DNA of 64,000 nucleotides from Candidatus Bilamarchaeum sp. (GCA_035455205.1 DATIFM010000024.1:5959-69958); one strand, 5' to 3'. Positions 38,452-64,000 are shown, numbered from the stretch's first letter. The notes: generated by a model not told the origin, from the letters alone. Translations and numbers: made by a program.

Positions 38452-41400
38452 ATGACCAGCGAAACTCGAAATCAGGAAAAAAAGGGGGCAGAGGGAGGCC
38501 AATCGCTTTCTCCGGCCCTTTCCCGCGCGAGGACTTTCAGCAGGCATTTCCGTCTTGTGGAATCCATTCTCCTCAGCGTTAGCTATATTAACGCCATTGG
38601 CCAGAATCAAGCCATGGCGGAGCCGATTCCCAGGCAACTCGATTCAGAAAGGATAAACCAGCTCAACCAGCTTGCCGAACAGGCTTTCGAGGCTTTCCGC
38701 TCGTACGTGATAAGCGGCTCCCAGTCGAGCAAGGACAAGTTCCTGCGCATCTGGAACGCCAACAAGGATGACGACGCGTTCTTCAACCGCTTCCAGGCAG
38801 GCATCACCGGGAGCCCGGAGGTTTTCCGCACGCTCCTCAACGCGTACAAGGCGCAGAAGGGCGGATACCCCTCGCCGGAGGAATTCATCGCCGCCATCCA
38901 GGCGTGCTATGCCGAGCTGCTGCGCCCGAGGAGCGAAAGGAACGTTTCGCAGATCACGCAGGACTACGGCCCGGCATTCGTGGCCGAGCTGGACCGGATG
39001 GTCACCGCCCGCTCAGTGCCGGTCCGCGTCCCGACGCAGGTCGATGACAGCACGATAAACGCGTTCCTCAACATGCTGCAGGTCAGCGGGACGAGGCCGA
39101 ACGCCCCGGCGCAGGAGCGCCTGCAGTTCATCATTGATGCAATCGACCAGCAGTTCGCCCTCCACAGCCGCGAGAACGCCTCAGGCATAGCGCAGGCCCT
39201 GCTCTATGCATATACGCTCATGAATGCCGAGGACCGCTCCCGCTTCTCCACCTGGCTCCGGACGATGAAGAGCGCCGACCGCACGGCCCTCGCGAACCAG
39301 ATAGTGACTTCCGTGGCGTCGAGGCAGATACGCCTTCCCTACGAACTCGTGCGGACTTCGTTCGAGGCATGGAAGCAGAACACCGAGAGGCAGAGGGCCG
39401 AAGTGGCGCGCCTCGAGGCCGAGCTGAGGCTCTATCCGCCGCATATCCGCGAGGGGACTCTCATTTCCCTGTCGCACTCGTTCGCGCAGGCGCCGACCGA
39501 CTATGCCCTCGAGAACATCGGGAGGCGCGTGGAATATGTCCGCAAAAGGATTGACATGCTTACGATGATGGCGACGCCACAGAGCAGGCAGCAGGCAGAG
39601 CAGCTCCGCGAGGAGCTCGGCCTGCTCACCACGTGGCTGGGCGGCCTCGGCATAACCGCGACAAGGCCCGAGGACGGCCTCAGCCGCCTCGCGGCAGGAA
39701 TCAACGCGCTCCAGAACTTCTACTATGCGATGAACCCCGAGCGCCCCGAGCTTGCCGACTACCTTTCGGCAGTCCAGTCGAACGGGACGCTTTCGGCAAT
39801 CTACCGTCGCTTCATACTCGCCGTGGATGCGCGCACTTCGAGGATATTTTCCGGCCTAAATGCCGACTCGCCCACCTTCGTTGTCCAGATGCAGGAGCGC
39901 ATTTCCAGCCGGGTGAGCGCGGCGCGCGTCCGGCGCGGGCAGGCGCAGTGGAACTCGGATTACTACCCGCTCCTCTCGCCCCTTTTTGCCCCCCCGCCCA
40001 CGACTTCCGGTGCGGTCCCGTCGAGCACATCATTCGACGCGCAGATGTACAACCGGACGTCCACGCTGGAGCCCCTGCTTGCGGTCGCGTTCCTCGATTA
40101 CCTCGAGGTCGCCGCCCGGAACGGCCTCACGGGCGCCCAGGAGCACCGGATTGTAGCGGCCACGGTGTCCCGCCTCTACGCGGTCAACCCGCTCCTCGTG
40201 GTGAAATATTTCGCGGCAGCAAAGAACCTCGCCACTATCTGCGAGGACAATTCCGAGGCGTTCCTCCGGGCGCTCACGGACATAGCCGCGAGGATATCGG
40301 TCGAGGCGGCCCCTGTCATATCCGGGGTTTCCCCCACGCAGATACTCCCGCTGAACGTCCGCCGCATCATCACGCGCCTCGCAAGCTCGATGGAAGCGAT
40401 AGCGCAGATTCCGAGGAGCTCGGTTGCCCAGTACGACCGGCTCAACCTCCTTGACGAGCGCCTCCAGATACAGCCGTACGCGCCGCACTCGATTGAGCAG
40501 AGGCCCTCAGGCTACATGCCGAACCTCCTTGTGAACCCGAACCAGCCCGCGACGCTCCTTCCGCCGTACCCGTTCCCGCAGTACCTCGTGACGCCCACGC
40601 CGACTTCGCCATTCACGGCAGGCGGGCTGTTCACTTCCCCGCCGACATACTCGGGCAACATCACGCTCCCGACTTTCTCGCCCATCGAGGTCTTCACCGG
40701 CGCGGCCTCGGTCGGAACTTCGATGCGCTATTACCTGAATCCCGAGCACCCCGTGGTCTCGATTTCGCAGTACCTTCCGGGCGTGAACATAAACGGCCTT
40801 AGCATGACGAGGCTCCTCAACGAGATACAGCGCGCCTTCATCCCGACGGACCGCCCCGACTACAGCAGGCAGATAATTTCCGGCGGAGGCGCGGGCGGGG
40901 TTATGGGCACGAAGCCCTCGGAAACCGACCCGTGGAATGTGGGCGGCGCCGGAATGGGGACGCTCATCACGCCTACGGGCGGGGCCTCGCTCGGCGGAGG
41001 GCGGCAGGACACGACGACTTTCGGAGGGCTCTCTGCGGTCGCGGTCCCGGTAGGCATCCCCGTGCTCGGCGGCCCATCGGCCGGCAGGAAAGTCACCGGC
41101 ATAGACAGCGCTGTCGCGGGAGTGCAGAGGCTGGACGACGGGACGCAGCAGGTCCTCCTAAGCGCAGTCCAGACCATGTGGGACCCGAACAACCCCAGCC
41201 AGATGCTCCTCTCGCTCAACCAGCAGCAGGATGCCCTCGGGACGAAATACATGACCGCGCGTTACTTCTTCATCGACAAGCAGGGCACGATTTTCGAGCT
41301 AAAGGGCGGGCAGAACGACCTCGTGGACGTGCTGAATTTCGCCGCGGGCTACGCCGACAACCTGTTCATGACGCCGACCACGAGCGCCTGGAACTACGAG

Positions 41401-43548: not shown

Positions 43549-43569
43549 CTTGACCTGAGGCTTTAGCTT

Positions 43570-44001
43570 ATGAAAGTCGAATCCATCGACATACTTTCCG
43601 GGGATTTCAGGAAGGCCGGCCGCCAGGCCCAGCAGACGATGAACATGAACATAAACCTCGTCGGCGCTCGGGCCGAGGGCAGCCTCCTCGACATCGATTT
43701 CGAATTCGTCGCCACTTACTATCCGGACGGCAGCCACATACGCATTCTCGGCAAGGCATTCCTCCGTGGGACCGAGGAGGAAGCGGCCGGGGCGGCCGCG
43801 GAGTGGGCTTCCTCGGGAAAGGTGGGCGGCGAGGCCGGGGAGCTGATAATCAACGCGATAAACTATTCGTGCTCGATAAACTCGGTTCTCGTTTCAAGGG
43901 CCATCAACATCGCCCCGCCAATCGTCCTTCCCACGCTGACTCTCGGGGAAACCGCTTCCGAGCCGGCAAAGAAAGCCCCGAAGCCCCCGAGAAAAAAATG
44001 A
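43570..44001 (+). CDS. small protein, SecB-like pattern (paralogue 1)
   Basis: 143 aa, 21 nt after A. Strand-rich first half ('LLDIDFEFVATYY', 'HIRILGKAFL'), then a helix 'GELIINAINYSCSINSVLVSRAINIAPPIVLPTLTL' and a Lys/Pro tail. Confidence 0.7.
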   Translation: MKVESIDILSGDFRKAGRQAQQTMNMNINLVGARAEGSLLDIDFEFVATYYPDGSHIRILGKAFLRGTEEEAAGAAAEWASSGKVGGEAGELIINAINYSCSINSVLVSRAINIAPPIVLPTLTLGETASEPAKKAPKPPRKK

Positions 44002-44051: not shown

Positions 44052-44471
44052 ATGCTGGAACTTATGCAGGTAATGCTGAATGGCGCAGAAGTAAAGAAGC
44101 TCTCAAACGACGTCCCGAAAGAAGTCTCGGTCAACCTCGATGTCGAGAAGCTGACCGCACGCACCCCCGACACCCTCATTGTCGAGTTCGTCTATTCAAT
44201 CGAATACAAGCCCAGCGTAGGCATGATGAAGTTCATGGGCGAAGCGCTCTGCCGGGACAGCCCGGACAACGTGAAGAAGATACTCGCAGAATACAAGAAG
44301 ACCAAGATGATTTCTTACGAGATGGGAGCGAACGCGATAAACATGATAAACGCGAACGTCGGCATGAACGCGATTTTCGTTTTGAGGCCGTTCGGGCTCA
44401 TCCCGCACTTCCTTCCGCCGCCGATTTCGGTCCCTCCGGTCGAGGAAAAGGCCCCGGCGAAGAAAAAGTAG
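44052..44471 (+). CDS. small protein, SecB-like pattern (paralogue 2)
   Basis: 139 aa. Collinear with paralogue 1 ('LIVEFVYSIEY', 'MMKFMGEALC', 'GANAINMINANVGMNAIFVLRPFGLIPHFLPPPISV', Lys/Pro tail). Confidence 0.7.
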   Translation: MLELMQVMLNGAEVKKLSNDVPKEVSVNLDVEKLTARTPDTLIVEFVYSIEYKPSVGMMKFMGEALCRDSPDNVKKILAEYKKTKMISYEMGANAINMINANVGMNAIFVLRPFGLIPHFLPPPISVPPVEEKAPAKKK

Positions 44472-44481: not shown

Positions 44482-44517
44482 GTCAACCCCTTCGGGGTTG
44501 ACCATGTCCTTTTTTTT
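44482..44517 (+). terminator. hairpin plus T8 terminator of the A / small-paralogue operon
   Basis: GTCAACCCC-TTCG-GGGTTGAC at 44482-44502, followed by TTTTTTTT at 44510-44517. Confidence 0.6.
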
Positions 44518-44583
44518 AATAATTATTTGTTCCTACTGCTGCCAAAAAAATTAATTAAAAAAAGACCGGTCAGTATGAACCCC

Positions 44584-44636
44584 GTTTGGTCAGTTTGTCA
44601 ACCCGAAGGGTTGACCGACTCACCAACTGACCAAAC
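44584..44636. repeat. compound palindrome downstream of giant gene B
   Basis: Outer 12-bp arms GTTTGGTCAGTT (44584-44595) and AACTGACCAAAC (44625-44636) enclose the inner hairpin GTCAACCC-GAA-GGGTTGAC (44597-44615). A/T runs at 44541-44565 give oligo-T on the minus strand. Confidence 0.6.
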
Positions 44637-44687: not shown

Positions 44688-47600
44688 CTACCACTGGAAC
44701 TGGCCGTAGAGCATGAAGCCCCAGCCCCCCGGGAACGTCCGTATCTGGTCGCGCCATGACGGGAGCGCCTCTGGCCTCGAAGTCTCGCCCGGAAGCACCG
44801 GCCAGCTGCCCGTGTACGCGGTTCCCGTAAGCTGGTAGCGCTGCGGAAGGATGCTCGTGCGGGGCTGCCTCGTGTATTCCCAGCTGATGCCGGCGCGGCC
44901 GATGAAGTCGGTCCGCTCGCCTGCCGGGGAAGTCGTTCCGCCCACCGTAGTTGACGTGAATTCCCTGCGCTGCTCGGCGCCACCCTCGAAGAAGAAGTGG
45001 ACCGCCATCCTGTCCCCGGCCACGAGGTCCGCCCTTGCCCAGGTTATGCCCGCGCCGCCCGTGGTCCTCGAAAGAGTCCCGAGGTCCGAGCACTGCCCGC
45101 CGCTTAGCGTCTGGCAGACGCGCGAAAGCTCGTCGGGGTTGTTGAACACGCTGTCGGAGGCGAAAACCACCTGCCTCGTGGCCCTGTTGAAGAACACGTA
45201 AGAGAACAGCTGGTCGCTCATCGTTGCGGTGTTTATCGCCTGGAACCTGTGCGAGAGCGTTATCGTCCACTGGTCCCACCTCTCGTTCCCGTACTCCCTC
45301 ACGCCATAGAACGCCCCCGCGAGGAGGTCGTGCCTGTGGTCCTGGAGCACCTGGAGCAGTCCTCCGACGCTCCAGTTCCCCGCCGGGTTCCAGATGTCGA
45401 GGCCCGAGCCGGTCAATGGGAGCGTCACGCCGCCCATGAACCTTACTGCCGTGAGCGCGCGCAGCCTCCTGTCGCCCGAGCATACGAGGCTGTACTGGTC
45501 CCCGTCCTGCCTGACTTCGACCCTCGTCACTCCCCGGCCTATCGTGTGGCCCTGCTGCTGCCACTCCGCGTAATCGTCGTCGTCGCCGATGACGAGCGAG
45601 CCCCTCGCTTCAGGGCGGTCGGCGACCGGAGTGTGGAGGACATAATATGTGGTCCTTCTCTGGGTGCGGCCCTCCGGGCTGGCAAGGTGCGTGCCGAGCA
45701 GGACGTCATACCTTTCGGGGCTGAGGCCTATCCTTGAATCTGAATTCGTCACCGAGACGAGGACGTCCAGCATGTTCTGCTCGAATATCCTCTGGAGCTC
45801 GGGGCCGGTCACATCCGCCCGTGCAGGGGGCTGGGTGATGCTGGCGCCGGCTATGCGGTTCTCCGCGCTCCCGCTCCTCTGCCCGCGGGTGCCAAGCTCG
45901 CGCTCAAGCCGGTCCTGAGGAAGCAGTATCCAGTCCAGGTCCGTGCTCCTCCTTTCGACTAGGTCCACGAGGTCCCTCGTGTACTGGCGCTCGAGGCGCG
46001 CCCTGTCGGGCGACGCGCGCCGGAGCTCGGTGAATATGTCTATCACGGCCGAGGCCGCGCCGCTTCTCCTGAGGTTGAGTATCTGCGTCGCCACTGCATC
46101 ATCCTGCCCGCGCCTCCTCGTTAGCTCTGCCGTGACTTCGCTCTCTGGCCGGATTGCCCAGCTGAGGCCGTCCCTTGCCGCGAGCACCGAGTCAACGGCT
46201 TCCCTGCCGTACACGCGTGCGAGCCTCTGCCTGTCGAATGCGGTGCTTCCGAGGTCGCGGTAAATGTTGCGCAGCGCGTCGCCCTGCGTCACCGTCCGCC
46301 TCACCGTCGCGGTCCTTTCATAGCGCTGGAGGTCTATCGAAGGCCAGTCCAGGATCCCGAATCCGGTGTAGAGGTCGACGTACGGCCTGTACTGGCCCCT
46401 GTTCACCTCGAAGCCCCCGGTCGTTCCCGGGTTCTCGCTGATGACGAGGGGCGAGTAGCCGTATGCGTGGCTCATTATGTCCGCGTACCACCTCGTCGGC
46501 CTTCCGAAGAGGAAGAGCGCGTAGAGGTTGCCGTACGAGGTCTGGTCCCCGGTCCACTGGCCGGCCCCGACGACGTATGCCCTGAGCCTCTCGCCGTCAT
46601 AGCCATATGCAATCGAGAACCTCCAGATGTCCCTGTTGAGGTCGTCGCGCAGGGAGCGGGAAAGGTTCTGCAGTATCTGGGCCTCGTTCGCCGGGTTCCT
46701 CTGGATTTCGAGCATGGCCTGGTCTATCCTCTCGTAGAGCCTGCTGAAGCCCGGGACGCGCTGGGCGCCCACGAGTATGCCGTGGCGCTGGGCCCAGTAC
46801 ATGAACATGGCCGATGCAAAGTGCTGCTCCGGGTTTCCGCCCGGGCCGCTCGCCTCCTGCCTGTAGCCGGTGGGCGAAGTCGGGTCGCGGACTGTCCAGT
46901 CCTCCATCCTCGCGTACATGTAGCTTCCCGCCACGAGGTAGCCCGTGTCCCTCGCGTCGTCTTCCGACCAGTGGTAGAAGCTCGCGAGCACGGTGTGCAT
47001 CCTCGCGTATATCTGGTCGGCCTGCGTGTCCACTGCGCGGAATTCGCGCAGAAGGTCAATATCGTTGTACGCGCCTGCGAGGCCGTAACCGACTCTCCTG
47101 TATCTAGACTGCGGAATCTCGTGCCTCCACCTGGCGCCGACTATGGGCGTCGCGCCGTCCCTGGACCTCTGCGCGCCTCCGACCACGCGGAGCTCCATCT
47201 GGTGCTCCATCGGGTCGATGCGCATCCTTCTCCACATCAGCTCTCCGGTCGCCGTTGCCCAGCGGACGTCGCTTATGTGCGTCCTGTCCGCGGGGTCGAC
47301 GGTGGTGAGCTGGGCCCCCCTGTAGAAAGCCGCATAGACGTCCCTCGCCCTTCTGTCCCGGACGAGGTCTGTGACGGCAGTCCCGACTGCCTGTTCTATG
47401 TGCACCGGGTCCATCGTGCTCATGTTGCGGACTAACTGGCCAAGGGCGAGCGCCGAGAAGCTGTCGCCGCCTGTTCTTGGAACGGTGAACCCCACTGCCG
47501 CGCCGTCGAAACCGCCGGCGGCCGAGTCGCCGCTAAGCATCCCGCGTCCGACGGTCCTTGCCCCTGCCAGCACCTGCTGGGTGTTCACGCCGCCGTAAAG

Positions 47601-53246: not shown

Positions 53247-55619
53247 TCAGCCCGGCTGTATGACGCGCCTTCTCGAGCCCGGCTGGGGCTCGACCTGCGT
53301 CGGCGGCGGCTCCTGCCTCTGCTGCGGAGGAGCCTGCGGCCTGATGTTGATGGACTGGCCCCAGTCCCCGACGTTCGCGTTCGGGTTCGCCATCCTCCAT
53401 GAGTAGACTGCCATCGCGGCAAGGAGCCTCGGGTCCGTTACGCCGGTCGGGTCGTAGTCGTCCCTGCCCATGCTGAAGCCCTGCCTGTAGAGGAGCGCCA
53501 AATCCTGCCTGAGCCTCGTGTAGACGTCGCCGCTCCTCTGCGCCTCCTGGTTGATGAAGCGGGCCATCGCCCTCATCACCACCCGCCTGTCGGCCTCGGA
53601 AGTTGTCCCGCTGAGGCGCGTTGATTCGCGCGCGACTCCGGTGAAGTCCGAGTTGTCGCGGCAGAACTGGAGGAATGCGGTGTTCGAGTGGAGGTAGTCG
53701 TTGAAGACCCTGTCGAACGCGTCCCTGATGTCCGTGCGGTTCAGCGCTCGGAGCGCGTCCTCGATTGAAGAGTATCCCTGCGGGAGGTTGCGCATTATCG
53801 TGACAATCCCGGCCGGCCTGCCTCCCTGCACGTTCTGGTAGAGCTCGGTCGCGAGGTTGCGCCAGTTCCTGTCGGCAAAATCCTGGAGCGCGCTCCTCGA
53901 TTCGGCCGCGCCTATCGTCCTTCCGAAGGCTGCCTGCGCCACCTGCCTCGCGATGACGTCCCTTCCGGCGTCGCTCGGGTGCAGGTGGTCGGGGTCGGTC
54001 TCCCTCTCGTACTGGGCCCTGAGCCTCGGCGGGTTGCCCTCGCCGATTAGCGCGGCCGTGTCAATGAAAACTACGTTCCCGTCCGCAGTCGCCTGCTCCC
54101 TGAGCCACTGGTTGAACTGCGTCGTCCTGCGCTGGAGGTCCGAAGTGGAGGTGGACGCGCCGGCCCACGGGAGGAGCCCGAGTATGACAACGCGCATGTT
54201 CCCGTCCCTCGCTGCGCGGATGAACTGGGCGTACCTGCCTTCGAGCTGCTCGACCGTCCCGCTCCCTATCCCGTTCACTCCCGCGTGTATCACGACAACG
54301 TTGTAGGGCGGCTGGTGGCCAAGGACGTCCCGGTTGAACCTGCTCCGCACGTGCGAGAGGTCCTCCCCGGAGACCCCGTAGGAATCCACGGCCGCGTCCG
54401 GAGTCGCCCCCGCGCCCTCGCGCAAAAGCCTCTGCAATGTGGTCCCTATCCTGTTGCCGGCTATGAGCGAGTCTCCCACGACGGCAACGCGAGGCACTGT
54501 TACTGTCGGGGCCTGAGGCTGGACCGGCGCGGCGGTCCCCTCGAGGGGAACCACCTGCGGCGCTGCCCACTGGTCTATCTGGCCATCTTCCCTTCCCCGG
54601 CCGCGCTCCGGATGCTCCTGCGTCCATCTCCTTATGTAGAGCGAAGACGCGGTGACGGTGTCTGCGTCCATCGCGCCGCCGAGGTTCATGGATATGAATG
54701 CGAATCGCGTCCTTTCATCCGGCTGCCTGCCTGAAGTCGCGGTGAACGTCCGCGCCTCATGTATGCGCGCCCTCACCCTTTCGGCGTTCGGAAGCTGTGC
54801 GACTTCGGCCCTGTACCTTGCGTTCGCGTCGTTCGGCGCGACGAAGCCGAGCAGGAAATACCTGACGTACATGTCCGCCGCGCGGATTATTTCGGCGTTC
54901 GCCTGCTCGCTCAGCATCTCCGGCCTCCCCGGCTCGGTGAGGAACGACTGGAGCTGAACGAACTGCGGGAAGTATTCGGCCTGCGTCGCGGCCACCGATG
55001 AAAGGTAGAGCCTGAACGCGGGAATCTGGTAGAGCGAGTTGAATACCGCTATCGTCGTGTCCCGCTGGTTGGCGGTCCTCAATGTGCCCCTCTGCAAATC
55101 CGACGAAAGGTACTGGTTGAGGAATTCCCTGTTGGTGTGGAGCGTGGAAGCAGCGGCGACCGAGCGGCGCTCGTCCCTCGCGGCTTCGCGGAGCTGGAGC
55201 GTGACCCACGGAATCACTTCAGTCGCCTGCGTCGGGAAAGTGCGCCTCGGCGTGGCTGCGCGCACGTCGCGCCCTCTCCCCTCGTCGCGGCGCTCCTCCC
55301 TTCTTTCCCTCCTCGGGGGTGGCTCGCGCCTCGCAGGCTCGTCGCGCCTCTCTTCCCTCCGCTGGGGCTGGGCAGGCTGCGCCTCCGGATTGAGCTGGCG
55401 GTAAATCGTCCTCGCGGCTCCGTTCACGTCGGTCCGTCCGACGTCAATCCCTGCGCCGTCGAAGAAGTTGCGGACGTTGGCGAGGGCGGCGTTAATCGCG
55501 CCGCGTATGTCCGCCTCGGACATCCCTGCCCGCACCGACACTCCGGACGACCTGGAAGTGCCTCCGGCCACTATGACTATCGTGTTTCCCTGAAGCCGAA
55601 CTTCTGCCATGTTTTTCAC
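53247..55619 (-). CDS. 790-aa multidomain protein C with a central SGNH/GDSL hydrolase domain
   Basis: - SGNH blocks: I 'VAVVGDSLIAGN', II 'SYGVSGED', III 'VIHAGVNG', V 'DPDHLHPSDAG' (aa ~376-566).
- Arg/Glu-rich spacer at aa 80-125.
- Flanking helical modules related to A and B.
- The start is either GTG 55619, overlapping the D stop, or ATG 55610. Confidence 0.85.
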   Translation of the reverse strand: MKNMAEVRLQGNTIVIVAGGTSRSSGVSVRAGMSEADIRGAINAALANVRNFFDGAGIDVGRTDVNGAARTIYRQLNPEAQPAQPQRREERRDEPARREPPPRRERREERRDEGRGRDVRAATPRRTFPTQATEVIPWVTLQLREAARDERRSVAAASTLHTNREFLNQYLSSDLQRGTLRTANQRDTTIAVFNSLYQIPAFRLYLSSVAATQAEYFPQFVQLQSFLTEPGRPEMLSEQANAEIIRAADMYVRYFLLGFVAPNDANARYRAEVAQLPNAERVRARIHEARTFTATSGRQPDERTRFAFISMNLGGAMDADTVTASSLYIRRWTQEHPERGRGREDGQIDQWAAPQVVPLEGTAAPVQPQAPTVTVPRVAVVGDSLIAGNRIGTTLQRLLREGAGATPDAAVDSYGVSGEDLSHVRSRFNRDVLGHQPPYNVVVIHAGVNGIGSGTVEQLEGRYAQFIRAARDGNMRVVILGLLPWAGASTSTSDLQRRTTQFNQWLREQATADGNVVFIDTAALIGEGNPPRLRAQYERETDPDHLHPSDAGRDVIARQVAQAAFGRTIGAAESRSALQDFADRNWRNLATELYQNVQGGRPAGIVTIMRNLPQGYSSIEDALRALNRTDIRDAFDRVFNDYLHSNTAFLQFCRDNSDFTGVARESTRLSGTTSEADRRVVMRAMARFINQEAQRSGDVYTRLRQDLALLYRQGFSMGRDDYDPTGVTDPRLLAAMAVYSWRMANPNANVGDWGQSINIRPQAPPQQRQEPPPTQVEPQPGSRRRVIQPG

Positions 55620-58600
55620 CGCGGGGGCTGTGCTGCCTGACGCCTCCTATTTGTGTATTCTATTATATAATTCTGCAGTGCCTCGCCGGTGGTCCTCATG
55701 TTCGGGATTTCCACGCGGAGCGTCGGGCCCGTGCCCGAAACGGTTATTCCCCAGGACTGCCTGAGCCTCACCTCGACCGGGTTGGTGCTCGTGAGGAACC
55801 TGTAAATCTCAGCATCAATCTGGCTGATTGCTTCAGGAGGGACGACTATCTGGTTGCCTGAGTCCAGCGTAGGGATGCCGAAGACCGCGCTCAGCCTGCC
55901 GCCGTCGCTCGTCGCGCTGCTGTAGCTGACCGTGCCGTTCCGTATCGTGGCCCCGGTCTGGAACATCCTCATCAGCCTTCCCTCGATTGCAGCCCCAAGG
56001 CCCGCGGCCCTGTCGCTCTCGTAGAACTGCCTCGCCTCCTGCGTCAATTGGGGCGGAGCCTGCACCTGCGTGTCGGCCGGCGCCTCAACGCGGTCCTGCG
56101 GTGCCATCTCGAAGCCGGGCTGCCTCGGGTTCCTCTGGACCGCGCGGTCGCGAAGGAGGTCTTCCCTCGAGCGCTCCCTCTGCCCGCCGGGCCCTCCGCC
56201 CGGAGTGCCCGCCCGCCTTCTCGCGTCCTCCTCGGCCTGCTGCCTCTCGGCAGGGGTCGGCCCCCTCCACCAGCCGCTCGTCCTGAACGTCTCGACCTGC
56301 TGGGTGGCATAGTTCTCGATGTCTGTCGGGCTCATCGCAGATGCCTGCGCGTTCTGCGAAAGCGATATTATTATCGCCGAAAGGTTGACTATCTGCGTCC
56401 TGTGCCTCGTGAGCCACTGCCTCAGGCCGTGCTGGTCGTCGGAATGGCTGCGCACGAACTGCACTAGCGGCGCCGCGCTCGTTGATGAGAGGAGCGAGCG
56501 GTCTATGTCGCCCAATATCCTCGGGCCGACGAACCCCCTTTCCCTCGCCCTCGCAAGCGCGGTGTCCGGGTTCTCCACAATCAGCCTCGCGAGGGCCTCG
56601 GCGTCGCCGTAAATGGCCTCGCCGTTCTCGCCCTCCATGAGGTTGAAGCGGTTGAATGCGCGGAGCGCGTCCTGGTTTTCCCTGTATGTCGAGAGTATCC
56701 TCTCGAAAACAGGCCTGAACGTCGCGTCCTGCGATGCGCGGACGTCGAGGATTCCAAGGAACGAGTTCTGCCTGATGCCCTCGACCTGCCCCCGGACGCC
56801 TGCCGGCACCTCGAAGAAGAGGTGCTCGCGCACCAGCGTGTCGCGGAGCTGCGAGTCGAGCGTCGTCGTCCCAGTCACCCTGCTCCTGATTCCGGCGAGC
56901 ACCCCGTCCCTCTGGAGGACCGCGAGCGCGTCGTCGATGTAGTTGATGGGTATCGTCCCCTGCTGGACTCCCTGCCAGAGGAACACGAACACGTCCGTGT
57001 TCTGCGAAAGGAAGCCCGCGGCCCCCTGTCCCCTCTGCACGCTGATTCCGCAGTCGCTGAGGAACGTCTCGATGACGAAATCCCTGAACCTGAGCGCGAT
57101 TCCCCTTGCGACCCAGTCGTCCATCCTCAATTCGGCCATGTCCGTTATGTCGAGCGACGTTTTGTTCTTCCTCGCAAGGAGCCTGTCGACTGCGTCGCGG
57201 GTTATGTGGAAGCCGGTGAGTATCTCGTTCAGCCTCCGCGTTGCGTCCGCGGCGCCGTCCCCTCCAGCCCTGCTCGTCGTAAGGAGCGAGTTGATGTCGC
57301 CAAGCCTCGCGGACATCGCCCTGCCGTCGGAAAGGACGTCATCGAGCCTGCTCGGATCGATGAGAATCTCGTTGCGCTCTAGCGCCCTGCGCAGGTCCTG
57401 CACGTTGCCCGGCGGCTGGTATGTGTACGGGAACAGGTTCGGGAGGTAGTCGAAGAACGTCCTTCCGTTCCCCGCCTCGCGGACGAACCTCGCGTTCTCC
57501 TCGCTGATGCTCACTCCCCATCTCCTGCGGACTTCCTCGCGCCCCTGCTGGACCGTGCCGGAGCCTGTGAGCGCTTCCCGGATTCCGGGCCACGCGTAGC
57601 GCGAGAGCGCCCAGAACTCGGCGCCCCAGATTATCATCTGGAGGCCGATTCTTCCGTAGCCGCCCATCCTTCCGACCGACAGCGCCGATTCGCCCATCGC
57701 CGGGTTGCGGAGGATTTCCCTTCCCTGCTGCATGAACCTGTACTGTCCCCTTATGGGAATCTCGTAGAAAAGTCCGCGGAGCGCGCGCCTCGCGAAGCTT
57801 CCCTGCCACCATTCGGCTACGGCCTGCGGCGCGGTCCTCGTGGCCTGCCTGCCGACCATTCCCGCGCTGTCCATCGCCTCGCCGGCGATTGTCATCACCC
57901 TCTGGTCGAGCGCGGAGAGCACCGCGAAATGGTCCGAGAGCGATGTCCTTGCGGCCCTCGCGAAATTGGCGACGCCCGCTCCTGTCTCGCCCGGAATCTC
58001 GAGCTGGTTGAGCCTTGCAATCACGTCGTCGAGGCTGCCGCCGAGGACCGCCTGCCTGTACGAGTCGGCAGCCCTCTGGCCGTACCTTGCGCGCACGGCG
58101 CCGAACATGTCCTCGCTCCTTAGCACTCCGAGTACCGCGTCCTCTGCCGTCCCGCCTGCGCCTACCGACCTCTCGACGCCCTGCGCCATGGCCTGCACGA
58201 CCGGGTTTTCGGCTGTCGGAATCGCGCGGACCGCGCCTATCGCGGCCCGGCCGGTATCGACATATGCGCCGACGACCGCATCGTTCGGAACCACCCCTGT
58301 TTCGTTGAGCCTGAGCACCGCCTGTATCGTTTCAGGTGAGTATGTGGTCCCGGGCGGGAGTATTTCCTGCCCCACGAGCGTGCCGCCGCCCGAGGCGAAG
58401 CTCGTGCCGAGCATCCTCTGCGTGGTCGCAAGGGGCGCGTTGGCCGGGTTCCTCACGAATGAAGTGTAGCCGTCGAGCTGGCTCCTCGCGGTCGCAAGGT
58501 CTGATTCGAGCGACTCGACCCTCGCCTGCGCGCGCGTCTGGGCCCTGCCCGTGGCCGCCTGGGCCGCCCTTCTCTGGGCGGCTATCTGCTCCTGGAGCTG

Positions 58601-61600
58601 GGGAATCCTCGTCGACTCGAGCTGGTCTATCCTCGCGCGGACGTCCCGCATCGAAAGGAAGTTCCTCGGGTTTGTCGGGTCCCTCATGCCCACGTTCTTC
58701 TCAATGCCCTCTATGATGAGAAGCACTTCGTCGCTCCCCATCGGCTGCCTCGTAAGAACTTCCCGCAGGCCTGATGTCGAAAGGCCCCTTGCCCTCGCCG
58801 CGCTCGTGAGCGCCGTGTCCGCGCCCCTCATCACCCTCGCGAGCTGGGCATCCCCCTGCGCCATCTCGGTGAATGCCGCCCGGACATTCGGGTGCGACAT
58901 GATCCTTATTATCGCCCTCCAGGCGATTTCCTGCTGTGCCCTCGGCGTCTGGCGGCTCGTCGCGGTCTCGTAGAGCCCCTTCACTATGTTCGCTAGCCTC
59001 GTCGGTGCGCTCCTCACGAATGCGCCGACTTCGGCCTGCCCGTTCGCGGGCGCGGAAACTTCGGCCGCGGCCGCTATCTGGTCCATCATCCCCTGCGGAG
59101 CGACCGAGCCTATAGTGTCCTCCATTCCCCTCCTTGCCGTGGAAACGAAATCTTCTGGAACCGTCGTCGCTTCGCCCCTTGCGCTCCTGGCGGCGCGGTA
59201 CTGCCTCCAGCGCATCGATATGGAGCGCCCCCATAACGTGAGCCGGCCCGGAATCCTGCCCTGCTCTCCCGGATAAAGAAGGGTGTTCGGGTCCATCTCC
59301 CTTGGCGCAGGCTGGGGCGCTTCCCTCGGCTGCTGCTGGGGCTGGGCCTCCTGAGGCGGAGCCTGCTGGCGCGGGCCCTGCCTCGGGACACTTCCCCTCG
59401 GCGACGGGGCACCCGTGTCCCCGCCTTCCCCGCCCGGCCTCACTACGGGCGGGACGACTACTGGCGGCGGGCCCTGCCCTTCGCCTCCCCCGGATGCGCG
59501 TATCGGCGGCATCCTTCCGCCGCCGAACTGCGGCTGCGGGTTGGGAACTTCCTGCGGAACTATTTCCGGCTGGAGCGCGAGCGCGCCATCGACCTGCGCC
59601 GCGTACTGCCCGAACGCCTGCTGCTCCGCGGCGACGACGTCCGGCGGTATTATGTCCGCGAGGCGCCCCGTGGCCGTGCGGATTGCGCCGAGCGTCGCGC
59701 GCTGGGTGAATGGCGTGCTTTGCCCGCCCCCCAGTTCCTGGGAGAGGCTCGGGTTGTTGAGCAATGCGTCTATCACCGTGCCCGCATCTGGGTGCGCCGA
59801 GCGTATCGATGATAGCCTCGCCCTCGCCGCAGCCCTCTGCGCGAGCGCGGGCTGGGCTGCCGTATCGGGTATGAGAAGGTCCGAAAGGAATCCCCTTAGC
59901 CCTTCGGGGTTGAGCAGGCCCGCGGCGTCTATCTGCGGCCTCGTGCCCCTCGGTCCTCCGCCCGGCCCCTCCGGCGGCGGCATGTCGAATCCCCTAATCG
60001 CCCCTGCAAGCACTTCGTCTATGGCCCGGATGTTTATCGGCATCCTGCCTGCCGCGAGCTCGTCGGCTGCGTTCAGCACGCTGGTGTCCGCCGCGAGCCG
60101 CTCGATTATCGGGCGCATGTGGCGAGGGAGCGAGTTGAGTATCATGTCCCTTGCCGCGGGCGAGGCCCTCGCGAAGCTCCTAAGGAAACGCAGCAGGCTT
60201 CGGGGCTCTGCAATCCCCCTTGCCGCCGCGACCTCCGGAATCTCCGTCGGGCGCACCGTCGGCTGGCCTTCTACCTGCCTCGGTATGACGTTCTCGAGTA
60301 TCTGCGCGGCCTCGATTGTAGCGGCCCTCGCGCGCACCTGCACCCTGTAGTTGCTGTACGCGCTGATTCCTGCGCGGGCCATCATGAAGCCGCCGAACGC
60401 GGCCATGCCGAGGTTGAGTATGCCTTCCTCGGTCCTGCCGGCGCGGAGCGCCTGTATGCCGGTGTATGTCCCGTAGCCCATCATGCCGACGCCTATCGTG
60501 AGGTTCGTCACGTTCGCGATTGTCGCCGCGGTCCTGAATCCAGTTGCGAGCCTGCCGGCGGTCATCACCTCGCTTGCGACCCTGAACCCTGCGCCAAGGC
60601 CGCCAAGGCCGAGCGTGCCGACCGTGAGGCCGAGCATCACCCACGCCTCGGTGGATGCGTGGCCGTTCACGCGGATTTCCATCTGCACCCTGTCGACGGC
60701 GAGGTACGTGAATATCGCGCCGCTTATTGCCCAGCCTATTTTCGGTATGAACATCGCCGCGATGCCCACGCCTATCATCGTGTACATTTCGACTTTGCGG
60801 TCGTGCTCGTACCTCTGCCTCATCCACTCGAGGTCGCGCTCGGCCATCTGGAAATATCCGTCGGTCAGCTGCCTTCCGGCTTCGCCTCCGTATCCCTGCG
60901 AAACTATGCCGCGCATGTGCGCGCGCATCTCCCTCTGGCGGGGCGCGTAGTCCGTGAGAAGCATGCTCCTCACTTCCCCGGCGGGCGCGGCGAAAGTGGA
61001 AACCTCGGTAATCGCAAGCGCCCTCGCGACATCCTGCAGGCGCTGGCTTGTGAACTCGCTCGACGCGCTGGTGTTGAGGACCGCCCTCCTCCCTCCGTCC
61101 GCGTCAACGAACCCGTCCCTGTGCCCGGTAAGCAGCTGGCTGAAGACCTCGCACGAGCCGGTCCTGTAGAACTCGAACTCCTGCGTCGCGTACTGCGCGC
61201 GCAGCACCGGGAAGAACCTCAGGTCCAGGCCGGTCGGCGAAATGTCCGTGGCCCGGGGCCGCGGGAGCGGCACGAGCCTAACTACGTCGCCCATGTCGAC
61301 CTGGTCTATAGTCGGGCTGTCCTCTGCCCTGTAGAATATGAGCGCCTCCATCTTCTGGCTGACTGCATTCCTGTACTCCTGGTATGCGCCTTCCAGGTCG
61401 CCGGAAAGAAGAAGCGCCCTCGCGTTGGAGTAGTGGTTGCCCGCGTCAACGAGGTGGCGTGCGATGCCTGCGGCGCGGTCGCTCCGCTCGGAGGCCACCG
61501 CCCTCCTGAACTGCTCGTTGCTGTCTATCTGCTGGTTCAGGTATGCAAGCGTCTGGCCGATGCGGCTCTCCCTGTTGAGGTCCGAGAGTATCTGGCCGTA

Positions 61601-64000
61601 TTCGTCGATCGGGATTGCCCCGGTCGCGTTCTCGAGGGCGGCGAGCCTGCGGTCGAGGTCATCGAGCCTTGTGGTTATCGCATCGATAGCCTGCTGCCTT
61701 ATCGCCCGGCCCCTGGGATTGCCGTTGTACGCCGCACCGTCATAGTGCGCCCTAAGCTGGGCGATTGCCGCGCGCTGGTCGCGTATCTGCCCGCGAATCT
61801 GGTCGATGTTCTTCTGGCGCAGAGTCCTCGTGATTACGAGCGAGAGCCTTGCCTGGAACGCTTCCACTGCGCGGTTGTATGCTGCCATGTCGCCGCGCTC
61901 TGCCGCCCTCTGGACCCTTTCGCGGAGCTGCTCAAGTGTTGGCGCCGCGTCGCGGCCGCTTCCCCTGAGAACCGTGTCCGATGCCGCATGGTCCCTGTCG
62001 TAGTTCCTGATTTCCTCAAGCGTGACGTACTGCTGGTCCGTGACTCCGGCGGGCATCTCGAGAGGAATCCTTCCCACCGTGTCCGTCCTGCCGCTGATGA
62101 AGGCCGTGCGCCCCATGTACCTGTCGCTGAGCGCGCCGTAGTTCGCAAGGAGCGTCTCGGTGTCCTGTATCCTTGCCGCGCCGTCCTGGAACAGCATCAT
62201 GGCCGACCGCCTCGTCCGCTCGTCGGTGGCGTCTATCTCCAGCCTGATTGCCTGGAGCATGTCTCGCCTCCCGCTCTCGTAGCCCTGGACGCGCGCCGCG
62301 CCCGAGCCTGTGAATATGTCGTACCTCCATCCCTCAGACCTCGCGGCCACGGGCGGCCTTCCGCCGGATGCGGCCTGCGAAGGTGAGGCTATGCCGTAGA
62401 ATTCCCTGACGTATTCAAGGAGGATTATGGCCGCCGGGTAGTCCCCGCGCGATGCCCTCGCCCTCGCCTCTGCAATCGCCCGGTTGACGTCCTCCCTCCC
62501 GAATTCCCTGCGGGTTGCGAACCTCTCGAGCCGCTCGGATTCCCTCGCGACATAGAGGAGCTGGACTGCGTTGTAGCTCTCGGTGAAAACCTCGTATGCG
62601 TTCCTGCCCCCTGCGGTGCCCTCGCCCCCCGAGAGCGCGCGCATGGCGCTGCGCATGCCGTCGAACCCGGGCGCGTCGAGCGAGACGTATTCCCTGCCGC
62701 GCCTCACGCCGAGCCTCTGGACCGATTCGACGAACATGACCGCGAGCGTAAGGACCCTCTGCGCATCCCTGATGTTCCCTTCGCGCGCGAGCGTGTCGGC
62801 CCTCGCCAGCGCATCCTCGACAATCCTCTTGTCGTCGCTGAGCGCCCTGCCCCACGATGATAGCCCTGTGCGGAGCTGGTCCGCCCTGCCGCTCAATGTC
62901 TGGTAGCTCACCGCATTTCCGAATGCGTCGGACGCGTTCTGCCCGTTCCTTTCCTGGTCTATCGCCGCCTCCATCTGCGGGGAGCCCACCGGGTTCCTCC
63001 ACCTCGCCTGCTCCATTATGTCGATATAGACCGCGATCATCTCGATGAGCCTTCTTGCGCCGGCCATGTCGCCGCGCATCGCCCTTTCCCTCGCGACATC
63101 CATCGCGCCGGATATCCTGTCCCTGCGCTCGCGGCTGCCGAGCCTTGCCGTGTCCCTGCGTATCTTGTCCGAGTCGGCGAGAACGGTCGCGAGCTCGAGC
63201 TGGTACGAGAACCGGCTAAGCATCGCCGGCGTGAGCGTAAGCCCTGAAGTTATCGCGGTCCGTATCTCCTGGTAGTTGCCGAGGAAAGACTGCGCGCCGC
63301 CCGTGCTCCCGGCGCTTGCGCGCGTGAGGAGCGCCATGCCGAGCGCCATCCTCGCGAGGCTCACGTTGCCCGCGTCGAGCAGCGTGATTGCCTGCTGGGC
63401 GTACCATTCGGTGGAGTTGTCCGCCACGGTCCTGCCGGTGCCGCGAATCTCCCTCGCGGTAGTCATGAGCGAGTCGAACGTTTCCTGCTCGTTGGCGGGC
63501 CCGCTCCTCCCCGTAAGAATCCTGTACCTCTGCGTGAGCGACTCGATGTCCGAAACTGAAACATCCTGCCTCCTCTCGAGCCTCCGGATCACCGCGTCAA
63601 TCTCGTCCTTGAGCGCCTGCAGCATCCTCCTTGCCTGCTCGTCCCTCTCGGTCCTGATAAGCTCGGCAAGCTCGGTCGTCCACTGCCTGTAGTCCCTCAG
63701 GGTGTTCGCCCTGAACTCGGTGCGGACCTGCGTGCGTATCGTTTCGAGGTTGGCCGTGAACCTGCTGACGGTTTCCTGGTCGGCCCTGTCCTGGTCCTCG
63801 CCGTATTCGCGCCTCGCCCTGGAATCCTGGCCTTTCTGTATGACGAAAGTGAATATCCCGTCCCTCTCGGTGCGTATCCCGGGGTTGTCGGCGTTGTATA
63901 TGTTCGGGTTCTCCACGTAGAGCCTGAGCGCCCCCGTGCCGTTCGCGAACCTGCGCTGGTTGAGTATGAGCCCCTCGAGGGCATCGAACAGCGTCACCAT
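55616..64000 (-). CDS. giant membrane protein D (at least 2794 aa; N-terminus probably outside window)
   Basis: - 8.4-kb uninterrupted frame reaching the window edge.
- Helical ~100-aa repeats at aa ~196-890.
- Gly-rich TM bundle at aa ~1073-1215.
- Pro/Gln-rich linker at aa ~1484-1570.
- Long C-terminal soluble region. Confidence 0.85.
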   Translation of the reverse strand: MVTLFDALEGLILNQRRFANGTGALRLYVENPNIYNADNPGIRTERDGIFTFVIQKGQDSRARREYGEDQDRADQETVSRFTANLETIRTQVRTEFRANTLRDYRQWTTELAELIRTERDEQARRMLQALKDEIDAVIRRLERRQDVSVSDIESLTQRYRILTGRSGPANEQETFDSLMTTAREIRGTGRTVADNSTEWYAQQAITLLDAGNVSLARMALGMALLTRASAGSTGGAQSFLGNYQEIRTAITSGLTLTPAMLSRFSYQLELATVLADSDKIRRDTARLGSRERRDRISGAMDVARERAMRGDMAGARRLIEMIAVYIDIMEQARWRNPVGSPQMEAAIDQERNGQNASDAFGNAVSYQTLSGRADQLRTGLSSWGRALSDDKRIVEDALARADTLAREGNIRDAQRVLTLAVMFVESVQRLGVRRGREYVSLDAPGFDGMRSAMRALSGGEGTAGGRNAYEVFTESYNAVQLLYVARESERLERFATRREFGREDVNRAIAEARARASRGDYPAAIILLEYVREFYGIASPSQAASGGRPPVAARSEGWRYDIFTGSGAARVQGYESGRRDMLQAIRLEIDATDERTRRSAMMLFQDGAARIQDTETLLANYGALSDRYMGRTAFISGRTDTVGRIPLEMPAGVTDQQYVTLEEIRNYDRDHAASDTVLRGSGRDAAPTLEQLRERVQRAAERGDMAAYNRAVEAFQARLSLVITRTLRQKNIDQIRGQIRDQRAAIAQLRAHYDGAAYNGNPRGRAIRQQAIDAITTRLDDLDRRLAALENATGAIPIDEYGQILSDLNRESRIGQTLAYLNQQIDSNEQFRRAVASERSDRAAGIARHLVDAGNHYSNARALLLSGDLEGAYQEYRNAVSQKMEALIFYRAEDSPTIDQVDMGDVVRLVPLPRPRATDISPTGLDLRFFPVLRAQYATQEFEFYRTGSCEVFSQLLTGHRDGFVDADGGRRAVLNTSASSEFTSQRLQDVARALAITEVSTFAAPAGEVRSMLLTDYAPRQREMRAHMRGIVSQGYGGEAGRQLTDGYFQMAERDLEWMRQRYEHDRKVEMYTMIGVGIAAMFIPKIGWAISGAIFTYLAVDRVQMEIRVNGHASTEAWVMLGLTVGTLGLGGLGAGFRVASEVMTAGRLATGFRTAATIANVTNLTIGVGMMGYGTYTGIQALRAGRTEEGILNLGMAAFGGFMMARAGISAYSNYRVQVRARAATIEAAQILENVIPRQVEGQPTVRPTEIPEVAAARGIAEPRSLLRFLRSFARASPAARDMILNSLPRHMRPIIERLAADTSVLNAADELAAGRMPINIRAIDEVLAGAIRGFDMPPPEGPGGGPRGTRPQIDAAGLLNPEGLRGFLSDLLIPDTAAQPALAQRAAARARLSSIRSAHPDAGTVIDALLNNPSLSQELGGGQSTPFTQRATLGAIRTATGRLADIIPPDVVAAEQQAFGQYAAQVDGALALQPEIVPQEVPNPQPQFGGGRMPPIRASGGGEGQGPPPVVVPPVVRPGGEGGDTGAPSPRGSVPRQGPRQQAPPQEAQPQQQPREAPQPAPREMDPNTLLYPGEQGRIPGRLTLWGRSISMRWRQYRAARSARGEATTVPEDFVSTARRGMEDTIGSVAPQGMMDQIAAAAEVSAPANGQAEVGAFVRSAPTRLANIVKGLYETATSRQTPRAQQEIAWRAIIRIMSHPNVRAAFTEMAQGDAQLARVMRGADTALTSAARARGLSTSGLREVLTRQPMGSDEVLLIIEGIEKNVGMRDPTNPRNFLSMRDVRARIDQLESTRIPQLQEQIAAQRRAAQAATGRAQTRAQARVESLESDLATARSQLDGYTSFVRNPANAPLATTQRMLGTSFASGGGTLVGQEILPPGTTYSPETIQAVLRLNETGVVPNDAVVGAYVDTGRAAIGAVRAIPTAENPVVQAMAQGVERSVGAGGTAEDAVLGVLRSEDMFGAVRARYGQRAADSYRQAVLGGSLDDVIARLNQLEIPGETGAGVANFARAARTSLSDHFAVLSALDQRVMTIAGEAMDSAGMVGRQATRTAPQAVAEWWQGSFARRALRGLFYEIPIRGQYRFMQQGREILRNPAMGESALSVGRMGGYGRIGLQMIIWGAEFWALSRYAWPGIREALTGSGTVQQGREEVRRRWGVSISEENARFVREAGNGRTFFDYLPNLFPYTYQPPGNVQDLRRALERNEILIDPSRLDDVLSDGRAMSARLGDINSLLTTSRAGGDGAADATRRLNEILTGFHITRDAVDRLLARKNKTSLDITDMAELRMDDWVARGIALRFRDFVIETFLSDCGISVQRGQGAAGFLSQNTDVFVFLWQGVQQGTIPINYIDDALAVLQRDGVLAGIRSRVTGTTTLDSQLRDTLVREHLFFEVPAGVRGQVEGIRQNSFLGILDVRASQDATFRPVFERILSTYRENQDALRAFNRFNLMEGENGEAIYGDAEALARLIVENPDTALARARERGFVGPRILGDIDRSLLSSTSAAPLVQFVRSHSDDQHGLRQWLTRHRTQIVNLSAIIISLSQNAQASAMSPTDIENYATQQVETFRTSGWWRGPTPAERQQAEEDARRRAGTPGGGPGGQRERSREDLLRDRAVQRNPRQPGFEMAPQDRVEAPADTQVQAPPQLTQEARQFYESDRAAGLGAAIEGRLMRMFQTGATIRNGTVSYSSATSDGGRLSAVFGIPTLDSGNQIVVPPEAISQIDAEIYRFLTSTNPVEVRLRQSWGITVSGTGPTLRVEIPNMRTTGEALQNYIIEYTNRRRQAAQPPR

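Follow-up and report, generated by a model that had tools for sequence, protein, structure and literature searches.

The described systems that most resemble the gene cluster treated here are the bacterial chaperone SecB and its relatives, the type Va autotransporters, and the large surface proteins of archaea. The cluster lies, for the most part, in a 64,000-nucleotide (nt) stretch of DNA of Candidatus Bilamarchaeum sp. (GCA_035455205.1 DATIFM010000024.1:5959-69958), which is referred to below as the window. It consists of the giant genes A, B, D, and E, the esterase gene C, the small gene f, and two further small genes, s1 and s2, whose products are predicted to adopt the SecB fold. The cluster is read here as a locus for chaperone-assisted export of giant envelope proteins combined with membrane-anchored giant scaffolds, a reading to which a probability of about 0.5 is assigned.

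Bacterial SecB, as known from E. coli and H. influenzae, is similar in size to s2 (~140 amino acids, aa), and the predicted fold of s2 matches SecB over its full length, with a Foldseek probability of 1.0 and template modelling (TM) scores of up to 0.62. Rv1957 of the toxin-antitoxin-chaperone (TAC) system of M. tuberculosis is, like s1 and s2, encoded beside a dedicated client-like gene. In contrast to SecB and Rv1957, s1 and s2 belong to an archaeal host, which lacks SecA, and their presumed clients are not ordinary preproteins (SecB) or antitoxins (Rv1957) but the giants A and B, with presumed precursor masses of 180-300 kDa. The tail motif RPFNLxPPxxPP is likewise specific to the s family as compared with SecB. 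With respect to membership in a TAC system, no toxin-antitoxin pair lies by s1 and s2, whose neighbors in all loci are A, B, and Trm56, and PADLOC gave no match. A small archaeal SecB-like protein is already on record: MJ0357 of Methanocaldococcus jannaschii has been reported as a SecB homologue with ~18% identity to E. coli SecB (Ha et al., 2004, cited in PMC4361572), and no pairing with giant secreted proteins has been reported for it.

Type Va autotransporters (EspP, AIDA-I, EstA) show the same order of parts as B, namely a long leader, a huge passenger, and a C-terminal amphipathic β domain whose last residue is aromatic. In bacteria, SecB can be used by autotransporters. They differ from B in that their Foldseek matches to it have E-values of 0.025 or worse and TM scores below 0.25, and in that no Pfam domain of autotransporters or outer-membrane proteins (OMPs) was found in B or its 14 homologues. 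Moreover, neither an outer membrane nor β-barrel assembly machinery (BAM) is known in Micrarchaeota.

SPEARE proteins of Nanohaloarchaeota, said to have been described by Hamm et al. in 2019, are reportedly giant surface proteins of DPANN archaea. Giant proteins of nanohaloarchaea are also a subject of PMC10266531. SPEARE proteins resemble the giants of the cluster in their length of several thousand residues, in claiming much of a DPANN genome of ~1 Mb, and in their presumed surface role. However, the protease, adhesion, and restriction-endonuclease domains that are said to define SPEARE proteins were found in none of A, B, C, D, or their homologues; B is well conserved (33-74% identity) rather than fast-evolving; and the present giants belong to a fixed cluster of several genes, among them those for a predicted chaperone and an esterase. 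Ca. Micrarchaeum harzensis, of the same phylum as the present host, secretes SLP_Mh (PF05123), an envelope protein that has an N-terminal signal (bioRxiv 10.1101/2021.04.28.441871). SLP_Mh is a protein of ~101 kDa with S-layer Pfam domains, in contrast to the far larger A and B, which have none; an S-layer identity of A and B was therefore considered and rejected, SLP_Mh being a different protein.

A cluster of giant genes conserved in Micrarchaeota

Positions are counted from the first letter of the window, both strands of which were scanned for open reading frames (ORFs). The genes of the cluster that lie in the window are as follows.

38452-43548, + strand: A, 1698 aa, from the ORF scan; accessory, found only in some lineages
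43570-44001, + strand: s1, 143 aa, predicted SecB-fold protein, partner of A
44052-44471, + strand: s2, 139 aa, predicted SecB-fold protein, partner of B; the conserved type
44688-53090, - strand: B, 2800 aa, from the ORF scan; core member of the cluster
53247-55610, - strand: C, most likely 787 aa, without leader, with a central SGNH/GDSL hydrolase domain
55616-64000, - strand: D, C-terminal 2794 aa of a 2942-aa protein whose first 148 aa lie past the window edge

The scan reproduced the giant ORFs A, B, C, and D and the two small ORFs at the positions given in the original prediction, an earlier note made from the sequence of the window, and orthologues of matching length back A, B, and D. 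The frame of C is open over 53247-55619 (- strand), and its start is most likely the ATG at 55610, because all C orthologues begin with MAxVxL. The true length of D was obtained by a sequence search, in which P0003, from an independent assembly, proved 100% identical and 2942 aa long; in addition to this full-length copy, D has three full-length homologues of ~2900 aa and one partial homologue, which are 31-45% identical to it. The protein search with B gave 15 matches including its own copy, and all those that carry names are from Micrarchaeota; the 14 other homologues are 33-74% identical and 2529-3080 aa long, with one partial sequence of 1921 aa. The A orthologue P0002 has 1701 aa (64% identity).

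The length of an ORF alone does not prove that the giants are genes, because shadow ORFs in this G+C-rich DNA reach 1095 aa. The same giant sequences have nevertheless been assembled independently in an NCBI metagenome-assembled genome (MAG) and in Logan contigs, and orthologues of equal length in independent assemblies mean that the giant genes are real. Long antisense ORFs lie inside B (47745-51032, + strand, 1095 aa), D (60119-62386, + strand, 755 aa), and A (41299-43098, - strand, 599 aa). These are Arg/Pro/Glu-rich shadow ORFs of GC-rich coding sequence, and not genes.

The conservation of the locus was followed in DNA fetched around homologues of A, B, and D and in a scan of GTDB species representatives with a B profile; all ORFs of the fetched loci were compared with the proteins of the window. 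The cluster has the order E-f-D-C-B-s2 next to aTrm56 and stretches beyond the window, which holds ~25.5 kb of an estimated 30-32 kb. The order D-C-B-s2-Trm56-(ABC)-PGM, in which the last two are genes for an ABC transporter and phosphoglucomutase, recurs in at least 14 Micrarchaeota MAGs, and B is present in 12 GTDB species representatives. In genomes that share this order, the identity of B drops to 30%, and in genomes with B the housekeeping proteins Trm56, PGM, and ABC ATPase are 56-72% identical to those of the window. C adjoins D in all loci, and s2 adjoins B in every locus where that flank is present. The D-C and B-s2 blocks are immediate neighbors in every genome examined, including L013, L017, and L019, in which the D-C block is inverted relative to s2-B. 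E and f are found upstream of D in all four loci in which that flank is present. A and s1, by contrast with the core genes, occur in four lineages only (the window, L001, L010, and L016), where s1 adjoins A in 4/4 loci and the order is always Trm56-A-s1-s2, converging on B. The proposal that the genes are evolutionarily linked is thus borne out by synteny in at least 14 genomes, and the suggested co-occurrence of six genes in the same order holds for D-C-B-s2 in these MAGs and fails for A and s1. No description of the cluster was found in the literature on giant genes of Micrarchaeota and DPANN archaea, on Bilamarchaeum and Anstonellales, and on archaeal SecB-like proteins.

Because the same gene order and neighborhood are found in at least 14 MAGs, the locus is, as judged from its sequence context, vertically inherited and specific to Micrarchaeota, and it sits beside housekeeping genes rather than being a foreign insertion, as the term "island" in the original prediction had implied. 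A mobile, viral, or horizontally acquired origin of the region, or an artefact of assembly, is scarcely credible. A foreign origin would agree with the giant size of the genes and their lack of annotation, as it would with the G+C content of the giant-gene region (0.62-0.68, vs. 0.55-0.61 upstream); this shift in G+C, however, fits the Arg/Ala/Gly-rich composition of the proteins. Against such an origin stand the shared neighborhood (Trm56, ABC transporter, PGM) in at least 14 genomes, the failure of two scans to find relatives of the cluster among 2.9 million viral contigs, the lack of any PHROG or PADLOC match except that of the SGNH domain (A and B gave none), and the equal lengths of orthologues from independent assemblies. 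A viral or mobile origin was rejected on the conserved neighborhood and the viral-contig scans.

Small proteins with a predicted SecB fold

The original prediction had noticed two ~140-aa paralogues behind A and had called them chaperone-like. Both points are upheld: s1 and s2 are paralogues (24% identity, E-value 3e-13), and s2 is confidently predicted by modelling to have the SecB chaperone fold, with s1 as its paralogue. The AlphaFold2 model of s2, built on an alignment of 104 sequences, has a mean predicted local distance difference test (pLDDT) score of 94.8 and a predicted TM (pTM) score of 0.80. It contains four long antiparallel strands (residues 3-16, 24-38, 41-53, and 57-68) and two helices (71-84 and 89-114), followed by an extended tail that carries the RPFNLxPPxxPP motif. 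When the model was compared with the PDB by Foldseek, the top 13 matches were all SecB (1FX3, 1QYN, 1OZB) or Rv1957 (5MTW), with probabilities of 0.97-1.00; those covering ~135 residues, the full length of s2, had TM scores of 0.52-0.62.

An exhaustive HMMER search of 1.84 billion representative proteins gave at least 500 clusters of relatives (clustered at 50% identity) with E-values of 1e-3 or less, 92 of them with E-values of 1e-10 or less. The 150 matches listed are all small, mostly 125-165 aa. All five family members that carry an organism name are from Micrarchaeota. Family alignments separate two types, the s2 type beside B and the s1 type beside A. None of 104 family members scanned contained a Pfam domain, and hence none matched SecB; s1 and s2 themselves gave no SecB match in Pfam at E-values up to 1, and hhalign of the family against E. 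coli SecB gave a probability below 1%. Because the sequence searches found no similarity, it is the fold that links the s family to SecB.

Three distant members of the family occur in other surroundings. One, in L025 (10001-14316), has Trm56 in its vicinity and is convergent with a gene of at least 1308 aa, the product of which has a Gly-rich amphipathic β C-terminus ending in ...LTVGGTF; because hhalign found no homology between this giant and A or B, it is only analogous to them. A second member, in L024 (8304-10381), lies downstream of a TPR-AAA+ ATPase gene, and the third, in L026 (10001-12755), directly upstream of a gene for a Cdc48-type AAA+ ATPase. The neighbors of the distant members fit a role in protein quality control.

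The pairing of each giant secreted protein with a small cognate gene, and the duplication of this pair (A/s1 and B/s2), could also mark A and B as polymorphic toxins or contact-dependent effectors, with s1 and s2 as their immunity proteins. The s profile does match the colicin E5 immunity protein, weakly and non-significantly (E-value 0.66). However, the C-termini of B rank with its best-conserved parts and are not variable toxin tips, no toxin domains were detected and PADLOC gave no match, s2 converges with B instead of following it in one operon, and the SecB fold of s2 is matched with a Foldseek probability of 1.0. This explanation is therefore considered very improbable.

Architecture of the giant proteins A and B

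A and B have no match in Pfam or NCBIfam; for B, this extends to Pfam scans of the 14 homologues and to a sequence-profile search of the PDB. The claim that the giants match no known family thus withstood searches of Pfam, NCBIfam, PHROG, PADLOC, and PDB sequences, which found none but the SGNH domain of C. The parts of A and B that can be delimited are given below.

38452-38619, + strand: leader of A, aa 1-56, basic n-region, weak h-region, ending ...QNQAMA↓EP
52914-53090, - strand: leader of B, aa 1-59, RRR-x-VF n-region, weak h-region, ending SGTNLNNLGGSVAMA↓QP
38890-39045, + strand: single copy of the helical module in A, aa 147-198 (jackhmmer domain E-value 9e-8)
50853-51746, - strand: four tandem module copies in B, aa 449-746 (jackhmmer E-values 8e-29 to 6e-16)
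49488-50144, - strand: three more divergent module copies in B, aa 983-1201 (jackhmmer)
45879-46280, - strand: two further module copies in B, aa 2271-2404 (jackhmmer; AlphaFold2 pLDDT 80-90)
40402-42237, + strand: core of A homologous to the core of B, aa 651-1262 (hhalign probability 98.2, E-value 4.2e-14)
46608-48641, - strand: central core of B, aa 1484-2161 (hhalign to A), with dense invariant columns
44691-45338, - strand: C-terminal amphipathic β-rich domain of B, aa 2585-2800, ending ...PGGWGFMLYGQFQW (AlphaFold2 pLDDT 25-76)

The signal-like leaders noted for A and B turned out to be conserved across orthologues. They open with a basic n-region, often RRRx(V/L)F, and continue with 13-16 weakly hydrophobic residues as the h-region and, in the B family, the end (S/G)xN(I/L)NNxGGxxAMA↓QP. 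The B leader is conserved in 16/16 loci; the A leader resembles it (BLASTP E-value 3e-8) and is kept in P0002. From their sequences, these leaders look export-type and cleavable. RR(R)x(V/L)F, identified by eye, occurs in ~9-12 of the 16 B leaders and is absent from A, while the AMA site is conserved. The combination of RR and a weak h-region looks like a signal for twin-arginine translocation (Tat), and the RR is not universal, so that Sec and Tat are both candidate routes. In the public annotation, A starts at Met55 (1644 aa), and the gene calls of several B orthologues (L001, L004, L006, and L010) start at the Met of AMAQP. These choices (for A, at 38452-38616) delete the leader, and the predicted export of A and B is therefore hidden in annotations.

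Behind the leaders lies a private helical module of ~60 aa (...ALRDIYxELxRxxPDRxRLExxYGxxLVxxVExNxxxLxWxxRPxxEVxxELxRR), of which jackhmmer found 10-11 copies in B and one in A, and none in C, D, or E. Modules had been predicted to be common to A, B, and C; A and B do share them according to BLASTP, jackhmmer, and hhalign, and nothing significant was found for C. The two C-proximal copies in B are modelled by AlphaFold2 as small helical bundles with pLDDT of 80-90. The B orthologues P0015, P0016, and P0017 (aa ~1780-1920) carry extra modules within the otherwise conserved β-rich core. Such copies interrupt the core in some lineages, and the module thus behaves as a unit that can be inserted. 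The central core is the most conserved part of B and opens with a Pro-rich linker; that of A comprises a Pro-rich linker and a Gly-rich stretch, followed by a β-rich and helical part. Because the N-terminal regions match in BLASTP (3e-8), a repeat module is shared, hhalign aligns the cores with a probability of 98.2, and the same 18-nt motif lies upstream of both genes, A is, as far as sequence comparison goes, a shortened paralogue of B.

The second half of B is rich in predicted β structure. Residues 1627-1756 form six long Gly/Thr-rich β strands in the AlphaFold2 model (pLDDT 65-78), which are polar, and the family has the conserved end WPLxPGExTRPEYL...PGGWxxMLHGxFQW. The terminal residue is Trp or Phe in 13 of the 14 B loci with a complete C-terminus, and in the remaining one (L010) a Trp lies two residues from the end. 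A crude map of amphipathic periodicity gave only a β tendency in the C-terminal halves of A and B.

These features suggest another possible function, a more specific form of the export reading given at the outset, namely an apparatus for host contact or pore formation, in which B, with or without A, would oligomerize through β hairpins and the C-terminal domain into a large β-barrel. Such a barrel, secretin-like or autotransporter-like, would dock to or perforate a partner cell, with D and E as its cytoplasmic base. The antiparallel strands in the B model are 12-19 residues long, the C-terminal strands are amphipathic with a conserved terminal Trp/Phe, and leader, giant passenger, and C-terminal β domain stand in autotransporter order. 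The Foldseek list for B consists mostly of TonB-dependent receptors, autotransporter β-domains, BamA, and β pore-forming toxins, that is, of transmembrane β-barrels and pore formers; because this list is non-significant, it is a lead, and no fold is claimed from it. In addition, cryo-electron tomography of the Micrarchaeota strain ARM-1 has revealed a 21-nm barrel-shaped complex in the envelope (PMC11329633). On the other hand, none of the Foldseek matches is significant, the pLDDT of the C-terminal domain is only 25-76, the Pfam scan of the 14 homologues found no OMP or autotransporter family, and the strands at aa 1627-1756 are polar and not lipid-facing. Cultured Micrarchaeota have a single membrane and an S-layer (bioRxiv 10.1101/2021.04.28.441871), no homologue of B or D bears the name of a cultured strain (A_DKE, Mia14, or ARM-1), and the clade is thought to be less dependent on hosts (PMC8561730, PMC12892359). 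A contact or pore apparatus of this kind is accordingly regarded as quite unlikely.

A bolder version combines this barrel with the small proteins. Micrarchaeota would possess an export pathway of their own, in which the SecB-fold family, not recognized before in archaea, hands the 180-300-kDa precursors to the translocon and B and A then oligomerize, by way of OMP-like amphipathic β domains that end in an aromatic residue, into a very large envelope barrel, an analogue of autotransporters or secretins and a candidate for the 21-nm docking complex of ARM-1, with D, E, and f as its cytoplasmic base. This version is a long shot, and its link between the ARM-1 complex and B is pure speculation.

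Signals for expression

Several candidate regulatory elements surround A, B, and s2.

53096-53102, - strand: ribosome-binding site of B, GGAGGAG, 5 nt before the B ATG
38357-38374, + strand: TATATTTCTTTCCGCACA, a TATA-like, AT-rich element that resembles a promoter, 78-95 nt upstream of the A ATG
53185-53202, - strand: TTTATTTCTTTCCCGACA, the corresponding promoter-like element of B, which shares its motif with that of A
44482-44616, between the convergent genes: terminator region with two hairpins with T-runs and an AT-rich spacer between them
44482-44502: first hairpin, GTCAACCCCTTCGGGGTTGAC followed by T8, for the + strand genes
44598-44616: second hairpin, GTCAACCCGAAGGGTTGAC, with T-runs after the hairpin on the - strand, for B

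The expected ribosome-binding site of B was found, and A and B do converge over hairpins and oligo-T, as had been described. The 18-nt motif T(A/T)TATTTCTTTCC(G/C)(C/G)ACA occurs exactly twice in the 64 kb, where 0 occurrences are expected by chance, in both cases ~80-110 nt upstream of a start codon, that of A or that of B; its core, TATTTCTTTCC, recurs upstream of B in L001/L002 and L011. The motif is probably a shared archaeal promoter or 5′ element, and its restriction to A and B points to co-regulation of the paralogues. The stems of the two hairpins in the spacer between s2 and B are nearly identical (GTCAACCC...GGGTTGAC), a sign that the terminator element may be duplicated or shared. 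In the D-C-B direction, the TGA of D lies 5 nt ahead of the ATG of C, in agreement with the close spacing noted earlier, and 156 nt separate the end of C from the start of B.

The predicted esterase C and the giants D and E

Two domains of D and one of C can be located in the window.

53961-54482, - strand: SGNH domain of C, PF13472, with catalytic blocks GDS / G / GxN / DxxH
60365-60781, - strand: Gly-rich bundle of ~4 transmembrane helices in D, aa 1222-1360 of the full-length protein (hydropathy)
55640-56062, - strand: C-terminal ~130-aa domain of D, shared with E (BLASTP 28-40% identity, E-values 1e-8 to 1e-19)

The SGNH core that had been recognized in C is supported by a match to PF13472 at aa 380-553 (69.2 bits against a cut-off of 32.9, E-value 8.5e-19). 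In an alignment of 12 C sequences, two of which were not trimmed to a start, the blocks GDS, G, GG.N, and D.LHP each reach a conservation of at least 80%, and C is, by these motifs, a catalytically intact SGNH esterase without a leader. Apart from this central domain, C contains an Arg/Glu-rich low-complexity stretch. The domain also matches an unannotated PHROG (E-value 4.6e-4), the only match of the cluster in PHROG and PADLOC.

D has no match in Pfam, NCBIfam, or PDB sequences (the Pfam scan covered five D homologues), and E and f had none in the Pfam, PHROG, and PADLOC scans. Likewise, no significant modules are shared between C or D and B. The central Gly-rich membrane bundle proposed for D is confirmed by hydropathy peaks that, averaged over the alignment, are conserved in four orthologues; D lacks a leader, and its number of transmembrane helices is even. 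E, which lies upstream of D outside the window, is a giant of ~1380 aa, and f, also upstream of D, is a basic protein of ~105 aa that is 56-63% identical between genomes. In another Micrarchaeia genome (GCA_046331685.1; L004, 1026-18688), D is represented by two tandem paralogues of 2825 and 2895 aa, which are 51% identical and have a small f gene between them. Faint matches of cluster proteins to ZorA (E-value 0.38), to a tape-measure protein (s1, E-value 0.13), to spectrin, and to dCache were taken as chance.

The nature of D leads one to ask if the locus serves one function. It is unlikely, though to be taken seriously, that two unrelated functions lie side by side, with D, E, f, and C making up a cytoplasmic scaffold, tethered to the membrane, that might serve, for instance, cell shape, division, or membrane remodelling, and B/s2 and A/s1 being independent surface proteins with their chaperones. 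Such a division is consistent with the ~2800 residues of D that are predicted to be cytoplasmic and helical, with the promoter-like element and ribosome-binding site that B has of its own, 156 nt after C, and with the inversion of the D-C block relative to s2-B in L013, L017, and L019. Nevertheless, D-C and B-s2 are neighbors everywhere examined, despite the inversions and a sequence divergence of 30-50%, and this persistent adjacency argues for a functional linkage.

A model for the cluster

From the anatomy of the genes, we infer that the cluster encodes an apparatus of the envelope, of secretion, or of cell-cell contact. In the favored model of chaperone-assisted export and membrane-anchored scaffolds, s1 and s2 would act as cytoplasmic holdases that keep the giant precursors unfolded or soluble until export. 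A and B would be exported via Sec or Tat and cleaved after AMA, and the processed proteins would assemble in the cell envelope. D, E, and f may form a membrane-anchored, largely cytoplasmic scaffold, and C may remove an acyl or acetyl ester from a substrate. Together, the products would build and maintain an envelope structure specific to the lineage, possibly for cell-cell contact.

Several observations weigh against this model. With respect to the small proteins, sequence comparison detects no similarity between the s family and SecB (Pfam PF02556, NCBIfam, and PDB profiles), the fold of the family could serve another role, and two of the three distant members are not beside giants. Archaea also lack SecA, the partner of bacterial SecB (PMC4361572), and a SecB-like handover is therefore not simply transferable. 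With respect to export, the RR of many leaders is Tat-like, and Tat transports folded proteins, which fits a holdase poorly. The model of B itself is poor (AlphaFold2 of aa 1601-2800: mean pLDDT 55, pTM 0.36), with confidence confined to the helical repeats, and its Foldseek matches are non-significant (best E-value 0.013, TM scores below 0.25). Finally, it is only synteny that ties D, E, f, and C to B, and because D lacks a leader and its transmembrane helices are even in number, the bulk of the protein, including both large flanks, is probably cytoplasmic.

Host and flanking genes

The host is, from its sequence, a DPANN archaeon of the Micrarchaeota, as had been supposed: database entries for identical copies of A and B carry the name Candidatus Bilamarchaeum sp., Micrarchaeota, and the flanking genes are archaeal. 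Bilamarchaeum is a genus of the Anstonellales, an order of the Micrarchaeota, and this DPANN lineage has a comparatively rich metabolism (PMC8561730, PMC12892359); DPANN genomes measure ~1 Mb, and that of the type species of Bilamarchaeum 1.27 Mb (PMC8561730). The 38 kb upstream of the cluster contain archaeal housekeeping genes, including those for FttA/aCPSF1, the small subunit of DNA polymerase D, argH, argG, asnB, ThyX, geranylgeranyl reductase, phosphoglucomutase, an ABC-2 transporter, and aTrm56.

Three side observations concern this flank. Rfam identified a tRNA gene of 126 nt at 19850-19975 (- strand), which was overlooked by ARAGORN and most likely contains an intron. A nearby tRNA-intron endonuclease gene at 10313-11488 (+ strand) is of double length (391 aa). 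The ThyX gene at 27371-28984 (- strand) encodes 537 aa, ~2x the usual length, with two stretches of Thy1 domain, and its orthologue in L001 has 577 aa.

Significance of the locus

The clade keeps ~30 kb of coding sequence, by estimate some 2-3% of the genome, for six to eight proteins; apart from the SGNH domain in C, these have no match in Pfam, NCBIfam, or the PDB. Because the gene order has been kept although the copies are only 30-75% identical, the function of the locus is likely to be important. In practical terms, the start sites chosen in public annotations leave A and several B orthologues without their leaders, so that export, as judged by the leaders, would be missed by their users. 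The envelope of this phylum is debated, either two membranes or one membrane and an S-layer having been proposed, and B has a predicted β domain that is OMP-like and ends in an aromatic residue. If a SecB-fold holdase does act beside its giant clients, it would provide an experimental handle on post-translational export in archaea, which takes place without SecA. The cluster would then represent, in an archaeon, a system for the chaperone-assisted export of giant surface proteins that is built from families without known relatives.

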